Shown: piece by piece, positions 1-35,712 of the stretch
How positions within the stretch are numbered: the stretch's first letter is position 1
How the letters are laid out: every line of letters starts with the position of its first letter
Assembly: GCA_003990765.1 (NCBI GenBank)
Contig: RBNJ01000168.1
Coordinates: forward strand, 1-38,149
DNA: 38,149 nucleotides
Source of the DNA: Jimgerdemannia flammicorona
Lineage: Eukaryota
Direction of reading: 5' to 3'
The notes under the pieces: generated by a model
Told to the model about the DNA's origin: nothing
Database searches by the model: none
Seen by the model: the letters and a program-made list of their open reading frames with translations, nothing else
Translations under genes and position numbers: made by a program

Positions 1-25
1 CCCTTCTCGACGAAAAACCACTTTA

Positions 26-3000
26 TCAACCACTATCACCACCCGCCCACCACTCTGCTCACAGATCCCTTCCACCAGATGGCAACATCGCCCACCTTGC
101 AGTCCCCACCCAACCCACCACCCTGTCAACAAATCTACCACCAACTCCTCTTATCTCAATAACTTCTCCTGTATCCCTATCTGTCGCCCCTCCTCAAAAA
201 CAAAGAGCCAATGTCCAGCCAACCCCACCCACACCACCACAACCCATCCTACAGTAAGCCACCTATTACCGACACCTCCCACAAGTCTAGATTCCAGATC
301 TTCCCAGCGACCTCTCTCCCCATCTGGTCTCCTTTCAACCCCAAGGCGGTCCCCTACAGCTATCCAAAAGTCACCCAGAACCTCACACTCCCCCAGCCAA
401 TGTTCTGGCATTTGTACAAAACCCCCAACTTACCGAACATTATAACACTCCTCACAATCCAGCTGACCCCCATCCACCAGATGTCCAGCACGGAAGTTCA
501 ACATAACATTCCTCCACAACATATGCCACAACACTATCCAGAACTTGGAAGGGAGCCACCGCCGGACCTCTGTACACCAAGACCAGATCCTTGCCCAATC
601 CCACTCTTCACCAATCCTCACCGCCTGCCAGCTACTTGGCCAAAGATCCTGTCCAATTCGCCGCTGACACTCTACTCCATCACCAATGTCAAACTCAGCT
701 AGTGGAACTCCCCCTAGAAGCAGACAGTCCCATCGCCACATAGCTGGACCCCATACCTCCTCCCCCTCATTTCCACGCCAGTGCAGGCCTATCCGGTGCG
801 CCCCCTCAACCACTCCCCACCAGAAGCCCTTATACCATAACCATCAGCTTCCATTCAGACCCACCAAAGAGAGTAGATCCCCTATGGACCCCCGGGGGGA
901 GACTCTCATCTCCTACACCTTCTTCATCAATGGCACCCAACCTCCACCCTGTAGATCAACAGCCCTTCTCAACCACCAAGCATGCAGGCAGTGTAGACAC
1001 TTAGGGAAATCCACAAGGTCCAGGCCTCCCCTAAGCACTGGCTCGATAAGAGTATCCCAACTGATCTGGGCCCTTCTACCAGCCCAAATCCACTTCCTAG
1101 CCAGTTTCATCAGCCTCTTCACCACCCAAGCGGGAAAGTCTAAGTGATATGCCACATACCATAGCTTGGGGAACCAGTATACATTCAGAATTGCCACCCT
1201 TCCTGCCAGGGAGATGTGACGACCCCCCCAGCCTTTTAGAGTCTCTCCCCAAATGGCCACCCTCCTCTCCCACCATATCCATGGTAGGACTGATCCATAT
1301 ACAGAGAGGAAGATACCTAGGTACCGCACCACCTCTCCTGTGGGGACAATTGTTCCAATGACATCCCCTCCCACTAGCCTATTCCCCAGCACCATTGTCT
1401 CACACTTATGCCAGTTGAGCTTTGCTCCAGAGTGTGCCTCATACCACTCCACTGTTGCCCGAAGAGCCTCTACATCTGCAATTGATCCAAGTCCAACTAC
1501 CATGTCATCTGCAAAGGCCCCCACCTTCTATTCCACGCCATATACAGAGAGCCTAGTCACCCTCTTACGGATCCTGTCCATCAAAGGTTCCAAGGAGAGA
1601 GCATAAAGAATAGGGGACAGCAGGTCCCCCTGAGGGACTCCTCTCCCCAAGGGGAACGCCAAACCTCTGTAACCATTACACATCAGCGCCGCTTGACTCC
1701 CTTCCAACAAACTCAACATAGAGGCTCGAAACTGTAGTGGAACGCCAATCCTGTCTAGTACCTTGCCCAACCAAACCTGCCGAACCTGGTTGTAGGCCTT
1801 CTCTTGATCCAAAAAGACCAGTCTCCCATCCAGTCCACAGGCCCGGGCTCCTTCAATAATGCCATGTACCCAGGCAGTTCCATCTCTTATAAGTCTACTA
1901 CCTACAAAGCCCCATTGCTCCTCCCCCAGCACCTGTTGAGCAACCTTCTGTAGCCTTGCAACAATCACCTTAGTCACCAACTTCCAATCCATATCCAGCA
2001 GCATGATTGGCCTCCAGTTCTTCCAATCTGCATGCTGGCCCTTATCTTTATACAATAGGGCAACCAGCCCTAAGTCCTGCTCACCAACCCACATACCATT
2101 CAGAAGAACATGGTCATAGAGGGCCACCATCTCACCCAGCATCCCTGGGACTTCCACCATCTTCTTCCAGAAGTCCCACGGTAGCCCATCTTCCCCTGGT
2201 GCTGTCCCAAGCTTAGTCGCTGCCAGAACACCTTGTATCTCCTCCTCTTGTACAGGTAAGGTCAAGTCACCCAGACCCTCTACCTGTGGTGGCTCCCACT
2301 CTTCCAGTGTGTCACCAATCGCCTCTGCATCAGCACCCCCTTCTTCCTCACTCCACAGACCCCGCCAATTCTCCTTCAGCACTCCCAGTATCTGCTGCGT
2401 GCCATGCACCAGCTCTCCCTCAGCATCCAAGATCCCATCCCACCTATGCCTCACCTGCCTGGCTTTGAGGAGCCTAGACAAGTACCTAGTAGGCTGCTCC
2501 CCCTCCTCAAGCCCCTGCCATCTAAGCCTGGCTGCCATACCTTGCATATGAATCTCCTCCTCCTCTCGCAACACCCGTTGCAGTTCTACAACCTCCAATT
2601 TCACCCTCACTAACCTCCAATCCTCCACCTCATCAGATGCAAGCAAATCTGCCCACTCCAACTGCAATCTCCTCAGCCTATTGGAGGCAGACTGTATTCG
2701 CCTCCTCCTCCTTCTTCCTGCCTCCCTACCAGCTCCTCCCCAATAAACCCTCGCAGCCTCCTTCAATCTCATCCAATGGACACCCACAGATAAACCCTCC
2801 TGCCTCCAAAATGGAATCTTTGTCTGTACTTCCTCCACCCATGAGTCCCACAACCCCTTCTTGGCCAGCAGGGAGGAGTTAAGATGCCAATGTCCGGGTC
2901 CATCTCCACTCCCCCCAAACCGCCCCTGCCCAATCAGTCCCCAGTGATCAGACCATGGGCACCACACCACCTCCAAAGTCTTCCAGACATCAGCACCCCA

Positions 3001-3616
3001 ACATTCAGCTGTCAGAATCCAGTCAATCCTTGTCCCTAAGCCATTCACCCAGTGCGTGTAGACTCTGGTGCCGCCCCACCATGTTCGGCCCATATCCCCT
3101 AAGGAGCTAAGGTTTTCCACCTCCTCCCATGCATCCAGGCCGCCACTCCTCCCACCAGCATTTCTTCCTCCATCAGTCCTATCCAACTGCAAATCTCGAA
3201 CCATGTTAAAATCACCACCAAGAACATCAACCCCATCCTCTAAGAGAATGTCCTCCTCCAGTAGTTCCTTGATCCATGCAATTCTCTCTCCCCTAGCCGC
3301 TGGGCAGTAGCATGAGCCCACCCTCACACTCTGGCCAGTGCCATTCACCCCAGACCAGTTGATCTCCTCAGTTCTTAATTCCTTCCAAATCTCCTCTACC
3401 CTTCTTCAACAGAATCACCACCTTTCCAAACCAAGCAGTAGCCCCACCCCATTCCTGAGTCCATTCCACCCGGTCATCCTCATCCTCATACCGTACATCC
3501 TGCAGTAGAAAGAGATCAGCCTCCAATCCCTTTAGCCAAGTAAAAATGTTCTTATGCCACCCAGATCCCCGAAGACCATTCACATTGAGAGAGAAAATGT
3601 TAGTTGTACTGTTCAT
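26..3616 (-). pseudogene. LINE ORF2 (apurinic endonuclease - reverse transcriptase - CCHC zinc finger), disrupted
   Basis: ATG at 3616 (MNSTTNIFSLNVNGL). Frameshift near 3350-3368. In-frame stops at 1528 (VYGVE*KVGAFADD), 913 and 430. ORF-track pieces 1528-3348, 913-1524, 430-813 and 151-411 share one frame. The 3' end is approximate. Confidence 0.92.
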
Positions 3617-3647
3617 GAGAAATATTGGTAAAGATAAAACCTCTTCT

Positions 3648-5691
3648 CTATAAATCTGCACTCAAGTCCACCTGTACCAAATCCAAGTCATGTCCTGCAG
3701 CCAGTATCTTCCTCCCAGTTCCCTGCACCTCCAAACTCTCAAGAAGTTCAACTATCACCCCATCCTCTTTCTCCTCAAAGTCCTCTCTATACTCCCTACA
3801 GGCCTCCTGCCAGAACTACAAACCATGGCATTCTGCCCAACAGTAGGCCGCCTGCTCACCCACAACAACCACCAGCTCCGCCTTCCTCACCTCATCCACC
3901 TCGTAACCCTCTTCCTCCAGCAGTATTGTAAGAATCTCCATCTGCAGTGCCTCCACCACTCCTGCACCTCGCGGAATCTGTGCCCAGTGCTCTTCTGGTA
4001 TAACCCTCAGATCCACTTCCCCCAACTCCTCAGCTGCAAGGTTATCCATCACCTTGCTCATCCACAGCAGATTCCCAATCTCCTTCCCTCCAGGGGTCTC
4101 TGGCCACCCTGCATCCAGCATCATAGTATCCACACCCACACTGACATCCTCATTCCACTCCTCTTCTGGGACATCCACCAGCTCATCCTCACCAACAGCC
4201 ACTACCTGGCCCCCTTTCGCCACATCTGGGACCCCAAAGGTAACCCGCTAGACCCCCTTCATTGATACATCTTCCGCTGCTCCTCTCTGCCCCACCGGGC
4301 CCCTCCTGATAAGTGGGGGGGGGGGTACTATCTGACTCCTCCTCCCAGACCTCAAAAGTACCATCTGCATAGGGATCCCTGCCCAGTATCTTCACAGCCC
4401 ATTCTTCGGTCACCACTGGCTCCTTACCACCTTCGCTAGCCCATACACTGGCTTTGATACCTCCAGACCCTTCAGCCCCATCAACCTTTCTCTTCTCCCC
4501 TCCAGTCATACTCGCCAAGAGCTCCCTCTGTCTCAAGTGCCCCTGAGCCCTCTCCCACTACCTCTTGTCAGTGCAGATACACTTCCCCTCCACAATCTCC
4601 AAGTGCGTCGACTCCTCATAAAGCTTCCAGGCCTTTGCCCACCACTCCACCACACCACTCATCTCCTCCAATGCCTCTAACAAATCCTCCTCCTCCTCCT
4701 CACTCTCCTTCACCCTCAACACTTTACAAATGAAGGCTCCCCACATCAACACTGAGGGCCAGTTGCCAGCCTTCTCTGTGGCCTCCCTCCCTGCCAGCTG
4801 AATTCTGACATCAACATCACCAGTCCTGATCATTGTCCCCTCCCATACCTGGAAGCCAATATCCACCACATCTCCATACTCCGCCATCACCTCCTCTACC
4901 CTCCTCCTCATCTCCTCCTTCATCGCTGTGGGCACCCCCTTCACCAGCAGCTGCACCACCCTGGGGTCCCACCTCAAACAGCATACCATGGGGACCACTA
5001 CCTTGCCAACTGCCACTCCTGCCCTCAGCACCTCTTCCAGTGGGCCTGCCTCCTCAAAGCCCACCTCAACTCCCTCCAGACCCCTCAGAAATTTCACCGA
5101 AGCTGCCCCAGCCACCTGCTTCAAGATAAGCCCCAAGACCATCTTTGCCATCACCCCTAAGCCTCGGAAGCACAGAGTCACCACAAACTCCGAGATTGAC
5201 TTCTTGAGTAACGGTGCCACCGCCAGTCCCATAACACCATCAGCCAGATCCCCCTTCTGTATCGGGACCCCCTGCCCCACCTGGCCATCAGCCGTTACAT
5301 CTCTTTTTTTTTGCTGATTCTCCATCATGCCCCCATCAGCAGTCACACCCCCAGCCACTGCTCCTCCAGCCCCTACTTCTGCACCTCCAGCCAGAGCACC
5401 ACCCCCCCTCCCTAGGCTCGCCTTGCCCTTCCCCTCAGCAGCACCAGCCCTACTACCAGCTGGCCACCCACTCTCCTTGACCTTGTCCGCGAAGCTTGGG
5501 AACCCAGACCTTCCCCCATTGTCACCAGCAGACCCTTGCCCTCCAGCCCTGCCTCCTCCTCCACCATGTCCTCCCACCAACAGGCCCCTCATGCTTCCCC
5601 CCAAGCCAGGTCCACTTCCTACATGCTGCCATCCAAACACTCCAGAGCCACCCTGCTCAGTACACACCTCAGGATTCTTGTCAGTAGCCAT
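3648..5691 (-). pseudogene. LINE ORF1 (Gly-rich N-terminus, RRM-like region, acidic/helical C-terminus), disrupted
   Basis: ATG at 5691. Tx1-type RRM-like segment VQLLVKGVP...EYGDVVDI...IRTGDVDVRIQL...WPSVL. In-frame stops at 4558 and 3816, a frameshift near the G10 run at 4316-4325, and a terminal TAG at 3648, 31 bp before the ORF2 ATG. Confidence 0.85.
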
Positions 5692-5770
5692 GATACTAGT
5701 AGCTTGTCTCCAGAAACTGCATCGAAAGTGTTGCCAAAAGATTGTGTAACCTGAATGTTACCAGAGAAAG

Positions 5771-7847
5771 GTGATCTCTCACCTCTCTTGTCAAGTCCAG
5801 ATAATGTTCAGCAGACACTGCCTTCTCTTCAGCCCTCTTAGTTTCCAGTCCTTCTAATAGCACCATCCTCCTTTTTCTCAAAGTCCTCATGATACTCTAG
5901 GCAGGCCTCCTGCCAGAGCTGCAAACCATGCCACTTCTCTCAGTAGTAGATGGCCCACTCACTAGCAACAACTGCCAGCTCAGGCTCCCTTTTCTTGTCA
6001 ACCTCATATCCTTCCTTCTCCAGGAAAACTATCAGTATCTCTGCTCTTAGTGTCTCCACCACTCCATTATCATGCAAGATCTCTGCTCAGTACTCATCAC
6101 TTATCTCTCTCAGGTCCACTTCTCCCAGTTCCTCTACTATAAGATTGCTCATCATCTGACACATCTACAGTAGATTTCCCACTTCTTTCCCCCCAGGGGT
6201 CACTGGTTGGCCTCTACTCAGTATGGAGATATCCTCCCCCATACTTATAGTCTCATTCCAACTCTTCTCTAAGACATCCAACAGTTCCTCCTTGCCAACT
6301 ACTACCACTTATCCACCTTTTGCTATCTCTGGAACCCCAAAGTGCACCTGCTGGGCCCCATATATGGGCACATCCTCTACTGCTCATCCCCTCACAGCTG
6401 GTCTCTGTCTGATAAGAGAGATAGATATGGGAGACTGCTCCCAGACTTAGAACATACTATTCTCATATGGGTTCTTACTCAGTACCTTCCTGGCCTCCTT
6501 CAGACCCCCCTCCACATTCTCCTCTAGCCCCCCAGCTCAGATGCTCACCAAATCTCCACCAGCATCTTCGCTTCCATTAGCAACCCTTGTCTTCTTCACC
6601 TCCAAGCTCACCAATAACTCTCTCTACCTTCTGTGACCTTGGGTCCTCTCCAACAGCCTCTTGTCAATATGGACTTGTCTTCCATCAACAATCTCTAAGT
6701 GTGTCAACTCTACATACACCTTCCATGCCTTTGCCCTATGCTCCACCATACTACTCTACTCCTCCAGTATCTCTAACAGATCTTCCTCCTCCTCCTCACT
6801 CCTCTTTATTCTTTACACCTTGCATATAAAGACTCTCCACATTATTGCTGAAGACCTATCATGTGTCTTGCCAGTAGCCTCTCTCTCCACCAATCAAATC
6901 TGGACATCAACATCTCCAGTCCAGAAGATGGTCCCTTCTCAGATGCTAAACTCTATATCAACTACCTCTTCATAATTAGCCATAACCTCCTCTACTCTCC
7001 TCCTTGTCTCCACAGCAGTCACTGTTGGCACTCCCTTCACCAGGAGCTGCACCATCCTGGGGTCTCATCACAAGCACCATGCTATTAGGATACACACCTT
7101 CTCAACTATCAACCCAGTCTTCAGTACCTCCTCCAGTGGCCCTGCCTCCTCAAAGCCCACCTCCATCCCTTCCAGACCCTTCAAGAACTTAATAGATACT
7201 GTGCCTTCCACCTGCTTTGCAATCAGCCCCAGAACCATTTTTGCCATCACTACCAAGCCTCTGAAGTACAGAGTGACTGCAAATTCTGAGATCATTTTTG
7301 AGTAATGGTGCTACTGCCAGTTCTGTTACACCATCAGCCAGGTCCCTAGGCCTTGTGCCCTTCTCACTACTTAATCTACTATCAACAGTTCTATCTGGAT
7401 TTTTTTCCAGATTGTCTGTCACACTCTTATCAGCCATCACCCCCTCAGCTACTACACCACCAGCCCCACTACTCTGGCCTCCCAGAGGAGCTCCCCCTCA
7501 GACCCCTGCTCTGTAGTCTTCATTATTACCTTTCTCCCCTCAGCCAACTCTCTAGCCCAGCTCCCTGCTGACCCCCCTTCACCTTCTCCATGAAGCTTGC
7601 CCTCTCTTTTCTCCGGCCTTCAGCACTACCCTCTCCCCTACCACATCCTCCTGCCATCAGGCCCCTCATACTTCCCCCCAAGCCAGGGCCCCTCCTTATA
7701 TATTGTTAGTTGAATGCACCAGGGCCACCATACCCAGTAGGCACCTCAGAATACTCATCAGTCACCATGATACTAGTATCTTTTCTCCAAAAACAGTATT
7801 GTAAGTATTGCCAAAAGTTGTATAACCTAAATGTTACTGGAGAAAGA
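5771..7847 (-). mobile_element. LINE copy 2: 5' UTR plus almost complete decayed ORF1, cut at the last ORF1 codons by copy 1
   Basis: Colinear with 3660-5770 (e.g. ggcctcctgccaga.ct.caaaccatg; EF.VTL.FRGL.VMAKMVLGLI.KQV). Shares the 5' UTR block ttgccaaaag...taacct.aatgttac..gagaaag. More stops than copy 1. Confidence 0.9.
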
Positions 7848-7865
7848 TATGTGTGACAGTATCTT

Positions 7866-8565
7866 CTCTTTCTTGAAGCCCACCTCCACTCCTTCCAGAT
7901 CCTTCAAAAATTCACCAAGGCTACTCTCTTCACCTTCTGAACTAGAAGTTCTAGAATCATCCTCACTATTATCACCAAGCTACAGAAATACAATGTGATA
8001 GTGAATTCTAATCTTGATTTCTTGAGTAATAATGCTACCACTAGGTCTATTATACCATCTGTTAGATCTCCAGACCTCATGCCCCCCCCTTGTTCAGATC
8101 TACTATCAATTATTATATGGATTTTTTTCCAGATTGGCAGTCTCCTTACCATCAGCAGTTCTGCTCCCCCCAGCCACTACTCCTCCAGCCCTACTGCCCT
8201 CACTGCTATGGACCACTCCCCTAGGCCTTGTAGTCCTTGCTGTCTCTTTGCCCTTTCTCAGCCAACTCTCCAATCTTATTGATGGCTGTCTCTCTATTAT
8301 CTTGTCAGCAAAGCTTATCCTCTCAGTCTCCTGTCTCTCTGTACTGCCTCCTTTCCTTCTATGTTCTCTAGCCAGCAAGTCTTGCATACTTCCCCCCAAG
8401 CTATAACTCTTCCCTACATACTACTAGTCAAATGCACTAGAACTACTCTACTCAGTATATATCTTAGAATACTCATTAGTTGCTATATTTCTAATACCTA
8501 TTCTCCAAAATCAAAGTTGTGAGTATTGCCAGAAGTTTGTATAATCTGAATATTACTGAAGAAAT
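7866..8565 (-). mobile_element. LINE copy 3: 5' UTR and ORF1 N-terminal part, most decayed
   Basis: Colinear with 5045-5770 (DL.DGI..L.VA.LLKKS..EFTITLYF). Third copy of the 5' UTR block at ~8485-8565. Confidence 0.85.
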
Positions 8566-8574
8566 ATGATTTAT

Positions 8575-8990
8575 CTCTGAAACATACTTTTCAAACTCCC
8601 AAACTTTGATCAACTAAATCTCCTTGTACTGTGCCATCTGTGCTATTATATTCTTCTAATATTGTATCCAAAGTCTCTTAGAGCTACTTCTCAGAAATAA
8701 GCTAGAGCTGTTTTGTCTTCTCTGAATAACTTATACACTCTTTTGGCAATAGTAATCTGAGTATAAGAGAGCTGACACTCTCTGATTCAATCTTCTTTTT
8801 TTATTTCTGACTTTGAGTTCAGTAGCTGTTCCAACTTGAAGTATTCCTGGAACTCAGTTCAGTTCTAGTAGATCTTGAAGTATGAAATTTATGACAAGTG
8901 TATCTATACTATACTCTAGATACTATCAAAGGATTCCTCTATAGTTGGTGGCTCAATGGAATACTACTGTCTTTCTATGGCTCATTATAT
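8575..8990 (-). pseudogene. Decayed accessory ORF downstream of element A integrase (unknown function)
   Basis: Manual translation gives FQEYFKLEQLL (8818-8852) and QITIAKRVYKLFREDKTALAYF*EVALRDFG (8668-8759). These resemble the ORF in the element B LTR. Boundaries are approximate. Confidence 0.6.
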
Positions 8991-11749
8991 ATTACTGGTA
9001 ATCTTGAGAGCTTTGGTATTACTTTGCTGGCTAGTTATGATATTTCTTAAGTTGGTTTCAATAAATGGTAGTGGGATGATTATGTCTGAGAGTTTTCATA
9101 GCCAAAAGGTAGTTCTTTTTATATTCTGCACCAGAAAAGATTCTTCCCACTTAGGCTCTAGTTTTCATAACCATGAAGCTTCTACCATATTCTAATATAC
9201 CTGGACTTTATCTTCTATCTTGATAATTTCCAAGAGCTTGTGAATCTTTTTCACATTATTCCATTGTAGTATCTGTATCTTAGTTATGTAATCCTCAGCC
9301 TTTTTCCTGATTTGGTATAGTCTCTATATCTCTATGTCCATATATTTTTATAAAGCATCTTCATTAAATAATAGAGTTCTTTGAGACTTTCTTCTCTAAA
9401 CAACATCTCCTGAGAGGTAAAATGGGTACTTTGTAATTAGATATCCCAGAGAGCAGATAATGCTATTGACAGATAGTGGTTCCAGTTTTCATAGTTATAA
9501 CAGATATTAGCAATGATATTCTTGAGAGTCTTATTTGTCCTTTCTGCTTATCTGTTTTCTTGAAAGTGATAGGCTGTAGTCTAATATATATACTGAATCT
9601 TATACTTCTTATAGAGAACCTCAAAGAACTGATTCATAAATTCTATTCCTCTGTCTGTAGTTACTTATATTGGGGTCTTGAACTAGCAAATGATTTCTTT
9701 GTAAAAGAAATCAGCAATTGACTGTGTATTGACTTCTTTGAGAAGTCCTGCCTCTATCTATTTTGTAAAAAGATTTATAATAACTATGATATATTAATTA
9801 CCAGTCAAAGTTAAGGGTAGAGTGCTGATTATATCTATTGCAATGTGTACAAAGGGTACTAGTTCTATGTATGCTGAGCCTGAGATCTGATTTTGTTGGT
9901 CCTGTTTCTGTTTCTGGTATGTATTTGTCATAGGTCTTGACAAATTATCTGATATTTTTCTCCATTCTGGATCACTTCATTGTTCTTTTTGCTTTTTTAT
10001 AAGTATTTGTTCCTCTTAGATAGCCAAGTTCATATACTGATTTCATTACTTACTCCTTCTTATATTTGGATATAACTAGTAGCTTTTCTTTCTTCAGTAT
10101 TTCTCTATCAGTTTTGAATTATTTCTATATTCTATTGATAATCATTTATGTTTATTCTTCTAGATATTGGGGCATCTTTCACTGTCTCAGATGGGTGATA
10201 ATTCCATAGTAAAGCTTTTTATTCTTTATTGATTTGTTGGTTGAGAATTCTTCAGAGTATTTGTGAGAGAGTATCTGTATTGGCATTAGTTCTTCCAGAG
10301 TAGTGCACAATGATTACATCATAGGCCTGCAACTTCATAATCTATCTAGTATAGATTCCTTTGAGTTGTCCAGTAGTCAGTAGCTAAGTGAGGGCTGAGT
10401 GCTCTGTTTGAATAGTGAAGTATCTTCTAACAAGATAGTAGTAGAATTTTTCTACAGCCCAGATGATGGTAAGACATTCTAACTTATAGGATTCATATTC
10501 TCTTTCAGCTCCTCAGATTCTTTAGCTAAGATATGTAATGATATACTCTACTTTGTCTTTCTTCTAGACCAGAACTGCTTCTATCCTTATGTACTTACAT
10601 CTGTCTACAAGATGAATTCTTGAATCCAATTGGATCTTCTGAAGATGAGTGCTTGAGTCAGTCTAATCTTGAGTTTATCAAATGCTTTTTGTTGCCTGCT
10701 GGTCCATTGGAACTTAATATTCTCCTTATTGAGTTCATAGATTAGTTCTGCAATATTGGAGAATCTTCTAATAAATCTGTGATAGTATGAGACAAGTCTT
10801 ATAAAAGCTTGGGCTTCAGTAATATTGGTGGGCTTTAGATATACTACTACTGCTTGAATCTTAAGAGAGTCTGTGTGTGTTCTATCTTAGCTGATGATAT
10901 GACCAAAGTAGGAGATCTTGATTTCTGCAAACTTGTACTTCTTAGGCTTGATATATAGGCCATGCTTCCTTAGCTTCTCTATTATCTGCTGAATATACTG
11001 CAGATATTCCTCTGGTGTTTTGCTATAGATAATTATATCATCCATATAAATTATTGTCTATCTTTCTATATCACAGTAAAAGATTTTATTCATCATTCAC
11101 TGGAAACTTACTAGTGTATTACAAATTCCAAATAGCATTCACAGATAGATATAGATTCCATCTGGAGTGATAAAAGCTGACTTCTTACTTACTGCTTCTG
11201 TGAGGATGATTTGATAAAATCCTGAGTATAAATCCAAGGTACTATAATACTATACTTCATCTCCCAGAGTTATAAATATATCACTGATAAGGGGCCATAA
11301 TTGGCAATCCTTCTTAGTAACCAGGTAGATCTTTCTATAATCAGTGCAGAGTCTTAGAGTAAATTCTCCTAGCTTATTTTCTTTCTTTGTAACTAGTATA
11401 ACTGATGAAGCCTAAGAACTACTAGTTTTTTTTAAAGATACCAGCTTCTTCCATCTGCTTGATTTCTTCTATAAGCTAATTGCAATAAACTAGTGGGATT
11501 GGCCTTACTTTTAGATAGATTGGTTCAGTATCTTCTGTATCTATATCATAATAGTAGTATTGTTTCTTTTCTTTGATATCCTTGAAATCTGTGGTCAGAA
11601 CATCCTTGAATTTATAGAATATCTTCTTGAGTTCTTTCTTGAGTGGAAATTCATTCCCAATAATATATATAGCTGTGCTTTCTTGTGCTTTCCTCCTTCT
11701 TGTAGTCCAATTTAGCAATTTTGATACTAGCAAATACTCCTCTTCCAGT

Positions 11750-12160
11750 GAATCCAAATTCTTTCCTTTCTCTCTCTATTTCCTTCAACTTTTTAACTTC
11801 TATGATTCTTAGCTATAGAACTGGGAAGATTAACATCTGCACTAGTTGGTCCTTTTTTTTGATTGGAAATAGAATCATAGAATTGTGATTTCTAGCAATA
11901 AGTAGTATTTCTTCAATATAATCTGAATTGATGACTCCTCCTTCAATAGTAATCTTACTCTTAGCTAAACTGCTTCTTGTCTTGAGGATTCTGACATAGT
12001 CTTTTAGAATAGTTATCTCCAGACCAGTTACAAGTAGGGCAGTTGTCTGGGGCTTGAGTATAGGTTCTTCTATTATAGTGATATCTATTTCAGCTGTATT
12101 TTCTAACTTGTATTCTAGTAAGACTATCAGAGTAGATTTTTCAAATCTTGAGCTTGATTT
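11750..12160 (-). pseudogene. dUTPase domain of element A pol
   Basis: TRSSLAKSKITIEGGVINSDYIEEI matches dUTPase motifs 2 and 3; colinear with the element B dUTPase. Confidence 0.85.
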
Positions 12161-14338
12161 CTTCTTCATCATTACTATTCTCTAGGAGGGCTGGTGGTTC
12201 ATTATCCTCTTCCTCTTCCTTCTTCTCTCTTTTCTTTTTTTGAGAGCCTTCTGTCTTCTTTCATGATTGATCTTAATTCTACTAATATACTGGTAGTAAT
12301 CATTCATATGCTCTATGCAATATATTCTAATTTTGTGGAGACAGACTCCTTATAGTGCATAATATTCTATGATTTTCTTGCACTAGTCTTTCTCACTCAT
12401 CTATCTGATATTCTTCTTCTTTTTCTAGGTAGTCACTATATAGATTTCTGCTTGCTCACTTTTTTCTTTCTCAATTTCAGAGAGTACTCCTTTGTTGATA
12501 TTGATAGAAATTCTCACCTTCTATCCTTGGTTGATAATCTGTATCTTTTGGATATTTAGATTAATTATTGCTCTGACTTTATGAAGCCACTGGTTGCTAA
12601 TGAGGATGTTATAGTTGATTACATATATTGATCATGATCACATCTACTGAGATAGTTGCTCCTCTAAACTTAATAAGAATATCTCAGATCTTTCTCAGAG
12701 GTGTGGTCCTTATTCCATCTGCAGTAATAAATACTAACTTAGTTACTTTCTCAATCTCCCAACTTAGATGATCTACTGCTTTCTTGCTGAGGAGGCATTC
12801 TCTGTCTCTAGTATCAATAATAGCCTCAAAGACTCTATCTTCAATCTGACAGATTGCATAGGCAGAGGTCTTGCAATTATCTTCACTTTCTTCTTTCAAG
12901 TCTTCTTGAATATTGTTGGCCTCAGTTATCTTCCAACCTTACTTCTTGGTTGTTTAGCAAGTCTATATCCCATTTGTTGTCTAAATGTAGGAATTTCTGC
13001 CAGCTGGTCAAAGGTTGTATTGATCTTTTATTAGCTGAGATCCTTGAAGATATCATACTTAAAGATCTTGGTTTTGCAAAGCTTCTTTGCTTTTTCTCCT
13101 TCACTGGCTAGGACTGGAGTAGTTCTTCAGATGATGTCTTAGATAGTCTATTCCAATTTCATATCTTGATCTACTCTTCAGCTTAGCTTTCTATGGCAGT
13201 CTCTATCTGCTTTTCCACAGAGTTCTTCTTGGGTCTTCCTAGTGATCACTTATAGGGTTTCTTATGGACATCTTTCTTAGTAGTCTGTGCAGAGTAGGCC
13301 TCCCATTCTTCTTCATCAGACTCTCCAATTTCTTTTAAGATAATAGTGTTGGCTTATTCCCTATTTTATGTAGTATTGCTTAGCTATACTTTATACTTGA
13401 TTTCACTTATACATTTATATAAAAAGTAGCCTTCTTCTCTACAGATAAAGCAGGTACCTCTCTTCTTGTCTGAGGTGGCAATAAATTTCTGAACTACATA
13501 GGCAACAGTCTCTTTCTCTGATTTCATTTACCATGTCTCCTAAGTGGGTAGTCATTTCAGTGAACTTCTTAGTTAGTTTCTCCATAGGGTCACTATTTCT
13601 CTACTACTCAGTAGCTTTTGGCTGAGGTGTGTTTTGATTGATCACTGTGATAGGAATTACACTTATTGCCTTAAGTACTTTAATTCTAACTCTAGTGACT
13701 CTTTCTATTGTATGGACTTGTAGATATCTAGCTGTCCAGTATTGCTAAGCATAGGTGACCTTTTGTACTAGTTCCAGGATTATTGGTAATGAGTAGATGG
13801 CCATAACTAACTCTAGATGGACTTCTTTTATGAAGGTTACTTCAGCTACTTAATCTTAGATGGCATCAGTATAATCTATAAAGATTATCTAATATCAGAT
13901 TCTAGTGTAAAATATGTTTGAATCCTCACTCATTCCTTATAGATTGAACTGATCCTTTAGAGCTTGCTTGATCTTATCTGTATAATAGGTGACTCAGAGC
14001 CAGGCCTTCTGTGCTGTCAGCACAGTATCATTATTATTTCCCACATAGGTTATAGCTATAAATACTGCTCTTGCAGGGCCTCAGAAACTGAAGAGTGTAA
14101 GGGCTACTTATTGTCCAGCTGTTAGAGTTCTTACAGTAGTATACTGCTAAAAATTATCAATATAAGTAATGATTGATTTATCTAAAGTATATCTATAGAA
14201 TACTAGTGATCTTATATCCATCTTGTCTGAATATCTCAGTTCAATTTGTGTGATTCTTCAAGTAGTAGTAGTAGTTGCTTATTATTCAGCTTAAAAGTGG
14301 GAAATTCATCTTGAATTACTAATTAATAGGCACCAATT

Positions 14339-14780
14339 TGTAGTATAGCAGATGTATAAGTGTGTAAGTATGTCAGATTTCTGTATCTTGAAAACTTAAT
14401 CTTCTTTGACTCTATAGAGTCCTTGGGATACAGGGGTGGGTAAGTTCAAAGTATATCTGTCTGCAGACTTACTAGTTATCTTACTTTCTCTTTACTTTAA
14501 ACTATTTTGATCTGAGGTTTATTTACTCTAGATACTAGAGATATTTATATAAGTTTGCTAGCTATAGAGTGGCTAAGTTATGACTATATTTCCCATAAGT
14601 TACTTTTTGCAAATATTGAATCTTTTCAATATCTGCTGAAGATTTTGATAATTGCAAGAATTTTGACATCTGCAGAATCTTTAGCAGTTGCTAAAGTTTC
14701 TATGTTTGCTAAATATAACTACTATTTATATGGCTAAGCTATATTTGAGAATCAGATTTAGGTACCATAATCAAATATCT
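14339..14780 (-). repeat. 5' LTR of element A, with candidate PBS at ~14320-14335
   Basis: On the minus strand the block ends ...ctactaca-like CA at 14339, then aat-TGGTGCC, the same arrangement as in element B. TATA-like TATATAAAT at ~14543-14551, AATAAA at ~14518-14523, ~19-bp subrepeats at 14600-14715. The far boundary is not resolved. Confidence 0.65.
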
Positions 14781-14863
14781 ATTCCTTTAATTTATATTAC
14801 TAATTAAGATTAACTATCATACTAAATATTACCAGAAATAGTAATCTATAGATAGCTATATAG

Positions 14864-16428
14864 TGTCACATAGTAGTCACTGAGTTCTTCAAATATATCA
14901 GATTCTCTTCAAAATATATCTCTTAGACTAACTCAAGTTTATTATAAGCAAGTTGTTATTGGAGTGCCTTCTCAAGGTCTTATAGTTCTCAAACTTCTTA
15001 TCTTTAAACTATCTTGTTATCTCTTAGATTGCTTGCAAGGAGGTGTATGTAAGTGAACCAGAACTGACTTTATTTCAAAGAAAATAAGAGTGATATTTAT
15101 ACAAAATACAATTCAATAGTTACTAAGATATAAGGCTAAATATAAATTCCAATAATCAAATAAAATGCTGGAATACAATTCCAGTGTTGATACAGATGGT
15201 TGTACAGGTTCAGGATACTGGTATAATTTCGATCATATAGGAAAATGGTGCTGGAATAATTCTGAGTCATATAAGGTCAGAATGCCAGTAGAGAAATAGC
15301 TATTATACAGGAAAAGAATACCAGTACAATTCAGTATAACTTAGAGCAGAAAGTTCAGGACTATGGGAGCTTCATTTTCATCAGAGGTCAGGATGTCTTC
15401 AAAGGAGATAAGATCAGTTTTGTTCATCTTGTTATCATATAGGTCACATATTTTATATATATTATACATTTGGCATATATTGCATAGGATGACATCATTG
15501 CTGATGATATCATCATATTTGGCAGTGGCAGGGGCTCTCCAATCTATAACATTCTCTTCTACAAAATAAGAAACAAATGTGGAGTCTTGGGGAGGTCTAA
15601 CCTGGATGCTGGGGCCTTAGAATACTGAGATCAATCCTTGCAGGAATTGATCTGGGTTGTCCTGAAGGATGGGATACCAGAACTCTTCTACCTCATCACT
15701 ATCAAGGGTGATAGTGGACTGAGCTTCTGTTGCCACTCTGGCTTCTAGTGCATTGATATGACAAGCTAACAGGTTTCTAAAGTCTGAGACTCTAGTATAC
15801 TCCAAGTTGAAGATCAATCATGGTGCATGCCTAAAGATCTGATGAATCTTCTTAGCTGTCCTTATTTTATATATATCCATAGAAGTAGCATTTTGTAACT
15901 CTTAAGGGCTGATCTGTGGGAACTCCCAGCAGAGAAGATTTCCTATTTCATACTTCTGCCATATTTGGAGGCATTTGGTAGTAATGGTGATCCTTGTTTC
16001 CATTTTATAGTGGTAGAGGATAAAGTGATAAGGATCTCTAGTATCCAGGTTAAGACTAGGAGTCCTTCTTGTATGGGTCCTCATGGCTCTTCTAATGTCT
16101 TGGAATATCCTTTCTTTGACTGAGTAGCCTTGGTGATTCCTTGACCTTGAGGTTTGGTAAGTGACAGACATTTCATTTGTGGTAAGTCTTTGAGCTATTT
16201 TGGGATTGGTGGGTCTTATTGAGTTGCTACTACTGCAGTTCCTTAATCCTTCTTTTATATTCCTCAAGATGCCTATTCTGTAGTCGCAATGACTCACAGT
16301 TGGTCAATATTACACATCTCATAACCTGGGTGAGTCATGCCATATGATCTTCTTATACTCTGAACTGGTGGCTTATAAGAAAAAGCTGTCTCCTATGCTG
16401 ATATCATTATTCAGAGGTCACCATTATA
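14864..16428 (-). repeat. 3' LTR of element B
   Basis: Runs tgtcacatagtagtcac...ggtcaccattata, a direct repeat of 22110-23678. Minus-strand TATAAAT at ~15095-15101 and AATAAA at ~15069-15074. Confidence 0.95.
15341..16171 (-). pseudogene. Protein-coding ORF embedded in U3 of the 3' LTR (~185 aa, possibly ~275 aa), unknown function
   Basis: Track ORFs 15902-16297 and 15617-15817 are in one frame, separated only by stops that are sense codons (CAA, TGG) in the other LTR. A possible extension runs to KTDLISFEDILTSDENEAPIVLNFLL* at 15341. Confidence 0.7.
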
Positions 16429-16438
16429 TCTTCCTCCT
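16429..16438 (-). promoter_or_regulatory. Polypurine tract of element B
   Basis: Minus strand AGGAGGAAGA immediately precedes the 3' LTR. Confidence 0.8.
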
Positions 16439-16799
16439 GAATAAGGATCTTCTTAAATATCCTTATTCATTAGTCTAGTCTTGAAAAATTTGCTGATCCC
16501 ATAACCTCTAGCAGGGGGTCGAAAAGTGATGTTTATGGGCTGGTATCTTCTTTTTGTATTTTGGAGTGATGGTGAAGAATCACTTCCTTCATATAGATCA
16601 AGGGTTAGATTTTGATCTTGACTAATCAGTTGATGGTTTGAACTTCTCTGATTTTGAAAGTCTCATGAATGAGTAGTTGCTGGTTCTATATCTTTTAGAG
16701 AATGGTTCAGACAGATTGTCTGCTGGTTATGGAATATGCTGATATGATTCACAAACTAGAACCTTACAGACATTCATCATGTTTTGCTTCTCTTATATA

Positions 16800-19700
16800 G
16801 ATTTGTGGTACTTCTTGAGTCTGTTCCTGTGTACCATAGTAGACAGTATGGTTTCTGAGAGTTTTCTAAGCCAAAAGGTAGTTCTCTTGATATCTTGCAC
16901 ATAGAAGAGTCATTCCCATTTGGGCTCCAGTTTTTGTGACCATGAGGCCTCTACCATATTTTGATATAGTAGGACCTTTTCTCTAATTTGGATGGGTTCT
17001 AGAGTCTTGGGATTCTTTTTCACATTTTTCTTTATCAGTACTTGTGACTTGGTGATGTAATCTTCAGCCTTCTTCCTAATTTGGTGTTGTCTCCAAATTT
17101 CTGAGTCAACCCATCTCTAAGTTAGGTCTAGATTTGTAGCTGAGGTTCCATCAGAATCTTCTTCTCTGAAGAGCCATTCTCTTGGGGTAAAGTGTATACT
17201 CTGTGACTGTATATCTCATAGGATAGAGAGAGTGGTTGGGAGGTAGTTATCTCAATTCTCATATGTATCTGAGATCTTTGCTAGGATGTTTTTGAGAGTC
17301 TTATTAGTTCTCTCTGTCTGTCTATTTCCTTGAGGGTGGTATGTGGTGTTCTTGATATACTGAATCTTGTATTTCTGATATATTATCTCATAGAATCTAT
17401 TGACAAATTCTGTGCTATAGTCTGTGGTGATTTGCTTTGGTGTCTTGTAGTGGCAGATGATTTCTCAGTTCAGGAAGTCAGCTATAGAGAGAGCATTGGC
17501 TTCTTGTAATGATCCTGCTTCTATCCATTTGGTAAAGAGGTCTACAATAACTATAATATAGTGGTTTTCTGATAGTGTCACTGGTAGTGGCCCAATGATA
17601 TCTCTTGCAATGTAGCAGAAGGGGATAGGCTCAATTCTTGACAACCTAGGTGCCTGGTCTTGCTGATCTTGTTTCTGTTTTTGGCACTTGTCACACCTTT
17701 TGACAAATTGGTGCAGGTCTTCTTCCATCCTAGTCCACTATATGGTTCTTTTTACCTTGTCATATATGTTGGTTCCTTCTAGGTATCCTTGTTCATATAC
17801 TTCCTTCATTACTTGATACTTCTTATATTCAGGTATTATAAGCTTTCCTCTTTTTTGGAGTATAGTTTTGTCTAGTTCAAATTATTTCTAAGTCCAGTTA
17901 ATGATAGTAATAGTCCAGGGTTCAAGATGGTTGGACATCTTCCACTGCCTAAGGTAGCTGATTAATCCATAGTATAGCTCCTTATTGATGTTGAATAGTC
18001 TTGATGGGAATGTTCCAGAGTATCTTTGAAAGTACATCAGCATTGGCATTGGTTCTTCCTGAGTGGTGCTTAACAATACAGTTATACTCTTGCAGTCTTT
18101 AGATCTATCTGGCATATATTTCTTGGGGGTTCAGAGTATGGAATAGCTAGGCAAGGGCAGAGTGATCTGTTTGAATAGTGAAGTATTTCCCAGCTAGGTA
18201 GTAGTGGAACTTGTCTACTGCCCAAACTACTGCTAAGCATTCAAGCTTACATAACTTGTAGTTCTATTCTGCTCCATGGGTACCTCAGCTTACATAGGAG
18301 ATAATATATTTATGTTCATCTTTCTTCTGAGCTAGGACTGCTCCAAGTCCTATAGTACTTGTATCTGTCTGCAGGATGAACTCTAGGTTCCAATCTGGTC
18401 TTCTGAGGATGGGTACTTGGGTCAATCTGGACTTGAGTTCATTGAAGGTTTCTTGGCATTCCTTGGTCTATTTGAATTTGGTCTCCTTCTTCAGTAGCTT
18501 ATAGATAGGTACTGCAATGTTGGAGTATCCTTTGATGAATCTTCTGTAATAGGAGACCAGTCCAAGGAAGGCATAGACTTCTGTGGTTGTTCTGGGTCAT
18601 GGGTAGGCTGCAACAGCCTCAATATTTATGGAGTCTGTATAAATTCCAGTCTGGTTGATGAGGTGTCCCAGGTAGGTGATTTCCTGAACTACAAACTTGC
18701 ACTTCTTAGGCTTGATGTAGAGGGCATACTCCTTGAGTCTCCTGAGGGCTAGCTGTACATGGTTGACATATTCCTGTACAGTATTGCTGAAGATGATTAT
18801 ATCATCAATATAGACAAAGAGCCATTTTCCAATCTCATTACTGAAGACTCTATTCATTATTTGCTAAAAACTTGCTAGAGCATTGCACATTCCAAATGGC
18901 ATTCACAGGTAGATATAGGTGGTATCAGATGTGATGAAGGCTGATTTCTCACTGGTATCTTGAGTGAGACCAATCTGGTAGAAACCTGAGAACAGATCCA
19001 AGGTGGTGTAGTATTTGGCTTCACTTCTAAGGATAGTAAGGATTTCTTGAATATTTGGCAAGGGCTGCCTATCCTTCTTGGTGATTGCATTGAGCTTCTT
19101 GTAATCAATGCAGAGTCTTGGGGCAAACTCTCCAGGCTTGTTTCTTTTCTTTGAGGCAAGGACAATGGGTGAAGCCCAGGAGCTGATAGCTTGCTTGATG
19201 ATTCTGGCTTCTTCTATTTCCTTGAGTTCTGCTTGCAGCCATTCTCTGTAAGTAGGTGGTATTGGTCTGGCTTTCTGGTAGATGGGCTTGGTATCACTGG
19301 TGTCAACTTCATGATAGTACTTGGGTTCTTGATTGTGGATATCCCTGAAGTCTATAGTAAGTACTCCTTTGTTCTGGTGCAAGATTTTGAGTAGCTGTTC
19401 TTCTAAGGAAATGTTTTCTCCAATGGTATATGTGTGCTTGTTCTGGTCCTTATCTTTCTTGTACTTAATTTTGGTAATCTTAGTGTCAGCATAGACTCCT
19501 CTTCCAGTAGATCCAAAGCCTTGTTCTCCTCTCTTAGTCTTGATGAGTTTGATGGCTTCTATGATCTTGGGTTTCTTGACTTCATGGATCAGCATCTGGC
19601 CAATCCTGTCATGCTTCTTGACTTTAAATGGGGTGGTGGGATTGTGATTTCTGATTATAAGGAAGATCTCACCTGTGTAATCAGAGTCAATTACTCATTC

Positions 19701-22109: not shown

Positions 22110-23678
22110 TGTCATGTAGTAGTTGCTGAGTTCTTCAAATATATCAGATTCTCTTCAAGGTGTATCTCTTAGACTAACTCAAGTTTGTTATAAGCAAGTT
22201 CTTATTGGAGTACATTCTCAAGGTCTTATAGTACTCAAACTTCTTATCTTTAAACTCTCTTATTATCTCTTAGATTGCTTGCAAGAAAGTATGTATAAGT
22301 GAACCAGAACTGACTTTATTTTAAAAGAAATAAGAGAGGTATTTATACAAAATATAATTCAATAGTTGCTAAGATATAAGGCTAAATATAAATTCCAATA
22401 ACCAAATAAAATGCTGGAATACAATTCCAGTGTTGGCACAGATGGTTGTACAGGTTCAGGATGCTGGTATAATTTCAGTGATATAGGAAAATAGTGCTGG
22501 AATAATTCTGAGTCACACAAGGTCAGAATGTTGGTGGAGGAATAGCTATTATACAGAAAAAGAATGCAAGTATAATTCAGTATAACTTAGAGCAGAAAGT
22601 TCAGGACCATGGGAGCTAAATCTTCATCAGAGATCGATGTCTTCAAAGGAGATGAGATCAGTTTTATTCATCTCATTGTTATATAGGACATACATTTTAT
22701 GTATGTTGCACATTTTGTATATATTGCGCAATTCAATGGGATGATATCATCACAATGATGTCATCACATTCAGTGACAGTGGGGGCTCTCTAATCTATAA
22801 TATTCTCTTCTACAAAATAAGGAACAAATATAGTATCTTGGAGAGGTCTAATCTGAATACTGGGGCCTTAGAATGCTGAGATCAATCCTTGCAAGAATTG
22901 ATCTGGGTTGTCCTGGAGGATGGGATACCAGAACTCTTCTACCTCATCACTATCAAGAGTAATAGTGAACTGGGCTTCTATTACCACCCTGGCTTTTAGT
23001 ATATTGATATAGTGGGCTGATAGGTCTCTGAAGTCTGAGACTCTGGTATATTCCAAGTTGGAGATTGACCATAGTATATGTCTGAAGATCTGATGAATCT
23101 TCTTAGCTGTCCTTATTTCACATATATCCATGAGAGTGGTATCTTGTAACTCTTGAGGGCTGGCCTGTGGAAACTCCTGGCAGAGAAGATTTCTTATTTC
23201 ATACTCCTGCCATATTTAGAGGTATTCAGTAGCAATAATGATCCTTGTTTCCATTTTATAGTAGCAGAGGATAAAGTGATAAGGATCTCTGATATCCAGG
23301 TTGAGGCTAGGAGTCCTTCTTGTGTGGGTCCTCATGACTCTTCTGATGTCTTGGAACATTCTTTCTTCAACTGAGTGATCTTAGTGATTCTTGACCTTGA
23401 GGTTTGGTGAGTGGCAGACATTTCATTTGTAGTAAGTCTTTGAGCTATTTTGGGATTGGTGGGTCTTATTGAGTTGCTACTACTGTAGTTCCTTGATCCT
23501 TCTTTTATATTCCTCAAGATACCTATTCTGTAGTTATAATGACTCATAGTTGGTCACCATTACTCATCTCATAGCCTGGGTGAGTCATACCATATGATCT
23601 TCTTGTACTTCAATCTGGTGGTTTGTAAGGAAAAGCTATCTCCTGTGCTGATGTTATTATTCTGGGGTCACCATTATA
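22110..23678 (-). repeat. 5' LTR of element B
   Basis: Runs tgtcatgtagtagttgc...ggtcaccattata, a direct repeat of 14864-16428. Confidence 0.95.
22587..23421 (-). pseudogene. Second copy of the LTR-embedded ORF
   Basis: MSATHQTSRS (1-nt frameshift) ... PYHFILCYYKMETRI ... IRTAKKIHQIFRHILWSISNLEYTRVSDFRDLS ... FLQGLISAF*. Confidence 0.7.
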
Positions 23679-23741: not shown

Positions 23742-23833
23742 AGTCTGAAAAGTTTCAAAGTAAAAGATAAGTCTGCCTACTATACTTTAAGAGATATGTC
23801 TGCCAAAAGCTACTTAATCTAGGAAGAATTACA
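23742..23833 (+). repeat. LTR 3' tail of element C (5' copy)
   Basis: 92-bp ungapped match to 28582-28673 with 12 mismatches, ending in CA; preceded by TATATAA and AATAAA. Confidence 0.8.
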
Positions 23834-26800: not shown

Positions 26801-28581
26801 ATATATTAACTTTATAAAAGCTCTAGATTTTATGGGTAAAAGAGAAATCAATTATCTCTAAGATCTCTCTATTGGAGCCAGATGGCTATATCTTAATCTC
26901 AGAGTATAAAGACTCATGTCTACTGAAGCTTTAGCTCAAAGATAATTCAAACTCAGCAAAGATATTATCCAGTATGTCTTACTATACTTTAAGGCCAAAT
27001 CTCAAATAAAATCTTATCAAAAAGATATAGGATTAATCTTTATAGACTCTAAGACAAATCTATCAAGCTTAGAAGAATAATGGTACTTAGTATAGGACTA
27101 GCTATGTAGCTATTTAAAGAAACTTATATCTAGCTAACCTCAAGGTCTAAACTCACTAGATAAGAAATAACTATAGAAGAAAGAATAATAGACTCTGAAT
27201 AAACAGGTGAAATCAAGATTATTCTGAATAATAGTAGTATAGAATAGAACCAAATCTATGAAGAGCAGAAGATTGCACAAGAAATCTTCATAGAAGTTAA
27301 GACTCCTCAACTATAAGAAGTCTCTGAACTAACTCAAGACACTAGACAAATTAAAAGATTTAAAAACTCAAATAAGAAAGAAGTACATCTCCCCTAGATT
27401 AACTACTTCAAAGAGGATACTCTCAGCAAGTATATTGCCAATCAGTCAAGCTATACAAGAACCTTATCTTAGAACTAGAAGAGCAGACCAGCTTTGAAAT
27501 ATTTATATCATCTGATCTTAGAAACCTCTTCTTTAAATCTAATAAGAACCTCAAAAACCTAGCTATAGAAGGATATATATTTTCTAATAAGATGAATTCT
27601 ATATATTCTCAAGCAACCAACCAAAGCTGATAGCCTCATTCTGTCAAAAGGAATCATCATAAGCCATCTGGTACTCAATTTTAATCAGATATATAGAGAA
27701 GTTTATAAACTAAACCTATTGGAAAAAGGCAAAAGATCTCAGAAGAAAGAAAAGGCCTTTCTGTAATTTAGGAAAAAATGTGTATAACCTTTTACTAATA
27801 TTAGACAAGAATTGACATCTCAGCAATAGTAGCAACTAGTAGAACTCCTTTATATAGAGATATATATCTTTACTATAGACTATAGTAATCTGCCATATTA
27901 TCTATCATATGACTATAGTATAAATACAAGAAATATAACATCTACTACTATAGTATAAATATAGAAAATACAACACCTATTTGGCAGAAGCCTTATAGAA
28001 TACCCCACTACCTAAAGATATTTGAGAAAGAATACATTTAGGAACTTTTAGACAATGGAGTTATCTAGCCCTCTTTCAGCTTCTAGATCAGTTCTATACT
28101 TATTATACCCAAGAAAAAAGAATGAAAATTCTACATAGATTATAGGAAGCTCAACTCAATGACAGAAAAAGATACCTACTCTTTATCCAGAATTGATGAT
28201 CTTCTAGATCAATTATGAGATGCCAAATACTTCAGCAGTATGGACTTTTTTGTAGAATTCTATAAGATTTCCATAAACCCCAAGAACATTCAGAAAACAG
28301 TCTTTCTTATCCTAGAAAAATTGTTTAAATATCTCTAAATGCTCTTTGGACTCAGCAATATACCTCCAACCTTCCAGAGAATGATGAACTCAGTCTATAC
28401 CCCACTGATCCACTACTGCCTAATTGTATACATAGACAATTCCAATATCTACTCAGTAAATTTTGAAGAAAACCTATACTATCTAGAAGAATTCTTCTAG
28501 CTTACCTACAAGAACTACCTGAGACTCAATGCTAAGAAGTGCTACTTTGAGAAACAGAAACTTGAATTCCTTATATTCATA

Positions 28582-28673
28582 AGTCTGAAAAGCTTCAAAG
28601 CAAAAGACAAGTCTGCCTACTACACTTCAAGAGATATGCCTGCCAAAAGCCAATTGATCCAGGAAGGATTTCA
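28582..28673 (+). repeat. LTR 3' tail of element C (3' copy), fused directly to the truncated RT
   Basis: Matches 23742-23833. Confidence 0.8.
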
Positions 28674-28874
28674 AATTTCAAAATAAAATATTTCAAATTT
28701 CAAATTTCGTACTTTATTTTCCCCTAATGCATTTTTTAATATGCCAGCGCTATACAATGATGCTACGCAATACTGAGTCACCTTCAATCATTTGTGACGT
28801 CAGAATCAATGATATTTTGGCGATGTTGAGTGGATTCGCTACATCCTTTTTCATTCCTTTCACCAAAAGACACA

Positions 28875-35679: not shown

Positions 35680-35712
<33 letters not shown>

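Follow-up and report, generated by a model that had tools for sequence, protein, structure and literature searches.

A probable third gene, ORF3, of a dUTPase-bearing Ty3/Gypsy lineage behind pol in one element and inside the LTRs of its neighbor in Jimgerdemannia flammicorona

The window we analyzed, the whole of a 38,149-nucleotide stretch of Jimgerdemannia flammicorona DNA (contig RBNJ01000168.1), holds two related Ty3/Gypsy elements, A and B, which follow one another head to tail along the minus strand. Pfam places the domains of both on one strand in the order PR-dUTPase-RT-RNaseH-IN, and the elements are 66% identical in DNA over 4,096 nt (A side 9085-13105) and 47-57% identical in protein over RT-RNaseH. 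Element B is complete in outline: its 5' LTR (22110-23678, minus strand, 1,569 bp) is followed by a PBS-like TGGTATCC, its 3' LTR (14864-16428, minus strand, 1,565 bp) stands directly behind the polypurine tract AGGAGGAAGA, and the LTR pair, with flanks (A)CTAT, is 87% identical over 1,576 columns. The pol of B ends in KKYHKSI (16793-16816, minus strand, stop at 16795-16793), 365 nt upstream of the 3' LTR. The internal region of element A (9031-14340, minus strand), which we delimited by Pfam, by homology to B, and by aligning the PBS region, contains gag, PR, dUTPase, RT, RNase H, and integrase in heavily decayed form; its pol end (9031-9051, minus strand) reads ..LKKYHN before a TAG stop at 9033-9031 and is homologous to the ..LKKYHKSI and stop of B. 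B appears to have inserted into the 5' LTR of A, the A remnant being 14355-14863, and no ORF3, the gene described below, was found in that remnant with either of two ORF3 profiles. At its other end A is cut at 8570, its 3' LTR being absent from the window, and at this junction (8570/8571) the homology of the adjoining repeats stops at 8567-8570, where a GC-rich repeat array and a LINE begin. DNA homology between A and B stops at 9085, and 8571-9084 is unique.

Several other features surround the two elements. Positions 1-8570 are GC-rich (50-56%) and strongly C-skewed, and they contain a minus-strand LINE with Exo_endo_phos and RVT_1 in a 625-aa ORF (1531-3405) and a further RVT_1 at 916-1527. 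Upstream of the LINE is a diverged array of direct repeats of 0.7-2.1 kb (3760-5770 versus 5863-7846, 68%; 7153-7848 versus 7876-8567, 67%), and this array, which abuts A at 8570, may be the repeated 5' region of the LINE. Direct repeats of 108 nt (23742-23849 and 28582-28690, 84%) bracket a very AT-rich region, 24000-28600 (28-30% GC), where, on visual inspection, plus-strand translations resemble protease and RT; the region may be a third retroelement in an advanced state of decay, and its ORFs of at least 70 aa gave no Pfam matches. A 78-aa open frame at 36713-36946 (plus strand) matches an NmrA-like/NAD(P)-binding family (E 3e-11) and is probably a host-gene exon adjoining the transposon cluster, and long A/T runs occur at 35671-35709, 36586-36641, and 38032-38084.

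Behind the integrase of element A, a first-pass annotation had singled out 8575-8990 as carrying an apparent homolog of an ORF in the LTRs of B. The peptides it quoted are indeed present in the minus-strand translation of both elements, FQEYFKLEQLL at 8852-8820 and QITIAKRVYKLFRE at 8759-8718 in A, and the LTR-B strings at 23275-23027 and again, in the 3' LTR copy, at 15808-15776. Its placement of the locus holds, but the ORF itself is wider: tblastn and HMM searches define a decayed copy of a 153-aa accessory ORF, here ORF3, at 8590-9038 (minus strand). This copy contains 11 in-frame stops, which fall at W, Q, or R positions of its relatives, and one frameshift, near 8655-8634, and it reads ATA at the relatives' Met position.

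A frame this damaged could owe its resemblance to the LTR-B frame to chance, being AT-rich junk behind the integrase with no gene in A. Besides the 11 stops, the direct comparison speaks for such a reading, since BLASTP of the A tail against the LTR-B frame gave E 0.076 (7/34 identical, 5' LTR copy) and 0.14 (3' copy), values that are not above chance given the many frames scanned by the first-pass annotation, and tblastn with the B-type proteins P0001-3 reached only E 4-9 at the A tail. However, a profile of P0008, P0011, and the A tail found 12 proteins at E<=0.01 among 801 candidates, of which 11 were new (P0012-P0022, 83-153 aa, E 7e-27 to 2.6e-10), and these intact A-type relatives, with the pattern MANNRST..ALKITSAAQRAIERQW..TEFQEYFKL..ITIAKRIHKLF..AWEFE, match A end to end. 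In tblastn, relatives aligned to A over the full 153 aa at E 3.2e-40 and 1e-38; P0013 covered 9038-8670 (E 3.2e-40) at 56% identity, stops counted, and P0012 covered 9038-8634 plus 8655-8590. An HMM of the 11 external proteins scored 177 bits (E 6.6e-57) on the A tail and 4.9 on the next unrelated frame. The A tail was in fact the top score of 846 sliding frames with every profile tried: a profile of eight external proteins, containing no window sequence, gave it 19.9 bits (next best frame, 1.7), and with a profile built from close LTR-B relatives it scored 2.9 bits (next frame, 2.2). A chance resemblance is thus refuted by the intact A-type relatives and the HMM score, and we give it practically no credence. 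We consider it very probable that 9038-8590 (minus strand) is a defunct copy of a genuine third gene of this dUTPase-bearing Ty3/Gypsy lineage.

The copy appears to lie almost entirely within the window. Two intact A-type relatives (153 and 121 aa) end at ..AWEFE, and the alignment of A reaches ..WEFE, 20 nt before the LINE junction, so essentially all of the ORF is inside. Directly after ..WEFE, the minus strand of A reads AAGTATGTTT (8588-8579), which contains GTATGT, the fungal 5' splice-site consensus; a second exon of the A-type ORF3 may therefore lie beyond it. The A-type may be a short form of the gene, or its second half may be elsewhere.

The position of the A tail, behind integrase, is one at which chromoviruses and errantiviruses carry additional modules (PMC2864245), and the tail might accordingly be a C-terminal extension of integrase, such as a chromodomain that has decayed, or a membrane protein resembling Env. 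The observations contradict both versions. The pol of A ends in LKKYHN and a stop, as pol does in B, and ORF3 starts at 9038, in a frame that differs from that of pol and overlaps its end by 8 nt, while the relatives start with a Met of their own. Pfam gave no match to env or chromodomain families at E<=10, and the maximum Kyte-Doolittle(19) value was 0.74, so that with a separate frame, its own Met, and neither a Pfam hit nor a hydrophobic segment, we judge an extension or an Env to be very improbable. The env-like position that the first-pass annotation had noted is nevertheless accurate, given that ORF3 and pol share a strand and ORF3 begins 8 nt ahead of the pol stop.

We then turn to element B, in which ORF3 lies wholly inside both 1.57-kb LTRs. 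The copy in the 3' LTR (15341-16171, minus strand; LTR positions 258-1088 of 1,565) comprises 276 codons and a stop, with three internal stops, and residues 1-271 of P0001 align to 16171-15344 at E 2e-118 (tblastn). The longer frame that includes it, 16303-15344, has 3 stops in 320 codons, compared with 26-50 stops in about 521 codons in the other five frames of that LTR. The copy in the 5' LTR (22587-23421, minus strand) has stops and frameshifts near both ends and was recovered by tblastn in three pieces (23398-22745, 22662-22636, and 22631-22590). Intact B-type relatives, of 215-342 aa, are available elsewhere: a word-seeded search of 5.8 billion proteins yielded 485 candidates that included 3 such proteins (215-271 aa, 68% identity), and an exhaustive search of 1.84 billion representatives with a B-type profile yielded 6 proteins (138-342 aa, E 2.8e-145 to 4.2e-4). 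A metagenome locus of 1,535 bp (L001), the 1 locus obtained from 93 pattern matches, encodes an intact 291-aa member. All B-type relatives are unnamed or "hypothetical," on contigs of 900-4,848 bp, and a protein atlas returned only unnamed clusters (scores 0.89-0.92). Viral contigs gave 0/49 and prokaryote genomes 0/15, and P0008 as a lone query retrieved only itself among 281 candidates.

Soil metagenome DNA provided copies against which the decay of the window could be compared. One soil metagenome DNA run carries a 0.06 share of the stretch, and 1,661 pieces of contigs from a soil metagenome aligned on the B 3' LTR. The window copy has three internal stops there, and at two of these positions the soil copies have sense codons, with residues as in P0001-3. 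When we compared the window with these contigs over 14864-17400 (run X1), the differences were A>G 69, T>C 38, G>A 37, and C>T 30; the window mostly has A/T where the related contigs have G/C, and thus its copy took mainly C-to-T and G-to-A transitions, a pattern expected of deamination or of a RIP-like process. The B-type LTR frame belongs to a real gene family, and the A and B copies of ORF3 in this window are pseudogenes.

We asked how the two types are related, since the first-pass annotation had proposed a comparison of profiles between the two ORFs. When the A-type alignment (A7) was compared by hhalign with a B-type alignment from which the window's B rows and P0008 had been left out (A8), the match had a probability of 83.8%, short of 95%, and an E value of 7.9e-6 over 99 columns, and A7 versus P0008 gave 85% and 6.1e-6 over 111 columns. 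P0008, the family member most diverged from the rest, matches both sides in ordinary BLASTP, the A tail at E 1e-6 (31/125 identical) and P0001-3 at E 2.5e-8 to 6e-7, and it is a bridge between the subfamilies, because removing it from the eight-protein profile drops the A tail from 19.9 to 5.8 bits. From the A side, P0012 reaches both B LTR ORFs in tblastn (E 0.005 and 0.009). The superfamily motifs are in register: [WF]Q/H-E/K-Y is followed 34 residues on by AK-K/R-I/V-x-x-I/L-F and then by ..DF, such that FQEY, AKRVYKLF, and RDF of A align with WQEY, AKKIHQIF, and SDF of B at equal spacing. The identical distance from AK to DF that had been noticed by eye is real, at 26 residues in both elements, and a blastn search with word size 7 likewise bears out the stated lack of DNA similarity between 8571-9084 and LTR-B (E<=10). 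The by-eye alignment itself was correct in its AK/DF register and wrong in pairing FQEYFKLEQLL with FILCYYKMETRI, a string about 21 residues upstream of the correct partner; FQEY pairs instead with the WQEY motif, 34 residues before AK.

At the level of sequence profiles, these comparisons show the ORF3 of A as a distant homolog of the 247-291-aa ORF inside both LTRs of B. The two types have in common a soluble domain of about 150 residues that is entirely helical, and the C-terminal half of the B-type, with its NPILQDNPDQ block and an acidic tail ending in ..LNFLL, is absent from the A-type. Both neighboring elements thus carry one superfamily with intact members elsewhere, in agreement with the conserved third gene that the first-pass annotation had suspected in this dUTPase-bearing Gypsy lineage. 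In the profile alignment, A and B are identical at 14/100 positions, compared with about 52% in pol, and we conclude that ORF3 has a much higher rate of evolution than pol, as is usual for accessory genes.

Membership in a family does not by itself give a gene a role, and ORF3 could instead be a passenger, either a captured fragment of a host gene or a gene-caller artifact on repeats, open only in young copies and of no use to the element. It has no known domain, and its relatives sit on short, repeat-like contigs as hypothetical or unnamed entries, all of which would fit. However, the two elements that carry homologs share only 47-57% identity in their pol proteins, and their ORF3 identity is about 14-26%; this indicates long joint descent rather than recent capture. 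Conservation is also blocky, with the invariant motifs TEFQEYFKL and NPILQDNPDQ beside variable linkers, and a TATA box and leader are conserved between lineages that share 43% protein identity. Furthermore, no stand-alone longer or fused cellular homolog turned up among the 1.84 billion representatives. We therefore regard a passenger as improbable.

The TATA box just mentioned recurs at nearly the same distance from the gene. TATAAA lies 85 nt upstream of the ORF3 start in A (9118-9123, minus strand), 88 nt upstream in both LTRs of B (16254-16259, minus strand, ahead of the ATG in the 3' LTR; 23509-23504, minus strand, in the 5' LTR), and 80 nt upstream in L001 (position 296, the sole TATAAA in its 1,535 nt), so that it stands 80-88 nt before ORF3 in each of the three lineages for which DNA is available. 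The corresponding strand of A and B contains TATAAA 18 times in 15,108 nt, and the longer form TATAAAAG occurs twice in these 15.1 kb, both times at the LTR box sites. ORF3 may be transcribed as its own unit from this TATA-type promoter, which would be located within the final codons of integrase in A and within the LTR in B; judging by the position of the box, we put the chance that this is so at about even. The box of A is integrase coding sequence (N-I-K-R), and coding alone could explain it. At the homologous codons of the B integrase, which has no ORF3 directly behind it, the sequence is GATATCAAGAGA.

A promoter inside the B LTR raises the potential that the box, at LTR position ~170, is simply the main promoter of the element, with ORF3 in R-U5 as a leader gene upstream of gag. 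The restriction of TATAAAAG to the LTR sites and the start of ORF3 at +88 are consistent with that arrangement. Three observations count against it. The same gene and box are found in A at the 3' end behind pol, where a leader ORF is impossible; long leaders with an ORF ahead of gag hamper gag translation, as a 1.3-kb leader with an 830-nt ORF would here; and the 477 nt that follow ORF3 in the B LTR show weak colinear matches to the short LTR remnant of A (best E 0.017), as if they were an ancestral LTR with its own promoter. On balance we think a leader gene unlikely and favor a dedicated promoter for ORF3, in which case every B-type LTR would carry the gene and its promoter.

We also considered which of the two arrangements came first. 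ORF3 was seen beside a Gypsy pol, or in LTRs, in the two elements of this window, the relatives being on contigs of 515-4,848 bp (515-3,003 bp for the A-type). The first-pass annotation had described ORF3 as absorbed into the LTR in B, and the location inside the LTR stands, while the direction of change is a matter of inference. Some sequence details hint that the position behind pol may be the older one. Just upstream of the B ORF3 ATG is a 16-nt sequence, AAAGACTTACCACAAA (16176-16191, minus strand), that is identical in L001 (355-370; E 0.049) and reads ..KTYHK followed by TGA, like the pol end KKYHK, with a frame offset to ORF3 that equals the offset in A. In L001, a purine tract, AAGGAGGGAGGA, comes right after the ORF3 stop. 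The weak resemblance of the 477 nt behind the B ORF3 to the LTR remnant of A, noted above, is a further hint of this kind. Direct tests for a relic of pol were negative: the 257 nt upstream of the B ORF3, taken as an integrase 3' end, gave DNA local alignments not above shuffles (50/300 and 22/300 reached the score) and protein matches to the integrase end no better than E 0.27, and for this reason the KTYHK-stop and YKR motifs stay hints only. The spacer of B between the pol stop and the polypurine tract (16429-16793, minus strand, 365 nt) contains no open frame, no match to either ORF3 profile, and no DNA similarity to the tail of A, and a profile of external A-type proteins found no A-type relic between pol and the LTR. 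By eye, L001 also has a diverged direct repeat (GTCAGGCGGAAC..CAGAACA..) at 170-225 and 1481-1535, 1,311 nt apart.

What the protein might do can be approached through its predicted structure and composition. The AlphaFold2 model of an A-type protein (P0012) has eight helices, with a pLDDT of 83.3 and a pTM of 0.77. The B-type model, at a pLDDT of 58.5, repeats that helical core and ends in a tail that is disordered from residue 219 onward. Maximum Kyte-Doolittle(19) values of 0.19-0.74 in nine family members indicate that there is no membrane segment. To the shared domain the B-type adds a middle block that is conserved and a tail that is disordered and strongly acidic; its C-terminal third has a pI of about 4.05, with hydrophobic residues within acid runs (DLISFED.., ..LNFLL), and its N-terminal two thirds are mildly acidic (pI 5.6-6.4), which does not favor DNA binding. 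A Pfam search at E<=10 found nothing in the intact relatives or in three translated frames of 8575-9200, and PDB sequence profiles gave nothing below E 0.38. In fold searches, which a distant relation may escape, the best values were Foldseek E 0.59 (PDB) and 0.12 (viral structures) and VIA Z 4.2 for the A-type, and Foldseek E 0.45 and VIA Z 3.9 for the B-type.

These features would suit a protein that acts in trans as a regulatory adaptor for its element, with the helical domain as a binding module and the acidic tail of the B-type as an effector, in the role of a transcriptional activator or of a factor countering host silencing, two roles that the first-pass annotation had put forward as speculation. 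We offer this function, which draws on modeled structure, as a tentative possibility. A more extended version would make ORF3 a self-promoted trans regulator whose whole cassette (pol-end relic, TATA box, leader, and gene) moved into the LTR in B, making each LTR its own expression unit; of this we are distinctly more doubtful.

Several known systems resemble ORF3 in position. The tas/bet ORFs of foamy viruses overlap U3, and the foamy virus activator consists of a binding domain and an acidic activation part. ORF3 is like tas/bet in its 3'-end position, in a promoter located in the preceding coding region (here a putative one), and in its reach into a long U3, and it is unlike them in that no sequence or fold match was found, the host is a non-vertebrate, and env is missing from the element; an activator function belongs to foamy viruses and would extend to ORF3 only by analogy. 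Parts of the foamy virus literature place these accessory genes 3' of the last structural gene, with an internal promoter in the preceding coding region (PMC8670036, PMC4929722, PMC13220597). The Sag protein of MMTV is encoded by an ORF in the 3' LTR (PMC2119085, PMC2191119) and is reported to be a type II membrane protein (PMC2191119). The B-type ORF3 is similar in being a protein of about 300 aa inside a long LTR, with both LTRs carrying the ORF, but ORF3 has no membrane segment and no Pfam sequence similarity to Sag. For foamy Tas/Bel, MMTV Sag, and lentiviral Nef alike there was no Pfam hit, with best Foldseek E values of 0.12-0.59 and a VIA Z of 4.2, and the likeness is positional only.

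Closer to home among retrotransposons, the Gypsy-family element Cer1 of C. elegans encodes CERV, an extra non-env protein that is reported to be needed in trans for the handling of element RNA (PMC10309623). ORF3 is likewise an extra non-env protein of a Gypsy-type element, a comparison made by description only. "Additional ORFs" with no assigned function are described for LTR retrotransposons of fungi, plants, and rotifers in passages of two papers (PMC2864245, PMC5408684), the first of which also describes a dUTPase between PR and RT in the basidiomycete element PosPlaTy3-5. ORF3, too, is an extra ORF in a Gypsy element, and it is set apart from those in these passages by description, not by sequence. 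The passages of PMC2864245 make no mention of an ORF inside an LTR or of sister elements that carry the same gene at different positions, and in the literature on retrotransposon ORFs we found no description of the ORF3 family or of one gene at both positions. With no Pfam hit and no sequence or fold match in the PDB either, the earlier description of the system as undescribed stands as far as these searches reach, and we conclude that ORF3 is a new protein family, within the known accessory ORFs of LTR retroelements.

Accessory genes separate "complex" from simple retroviruses, and very few are understood in LTR retrotransposons. ORF3 offers a helical domain, confidently folded in the model and without a Pfam or PDB match, and a case of one gene in two places in sister elements, behind pol in one and inside the LTR in the other. 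It makes two questions testable: whether a fungal-type Gypsy element has its own regulator, and whether a gene can be carried in, and expressed from, an LTR. Large metagenome protein sets already include intact ORF3 proteins labeled only "hypothetical," and annotating them would avoid their being counted as host genes. If the cassette reading were true, each LTR, even a solo one, would express ORF3 independently, and in a genome with hundreds of such LTRs the gene would be dispersed in high copy number and would keep the family active. The retrotransposon would then multiply its regulator faster than itself.
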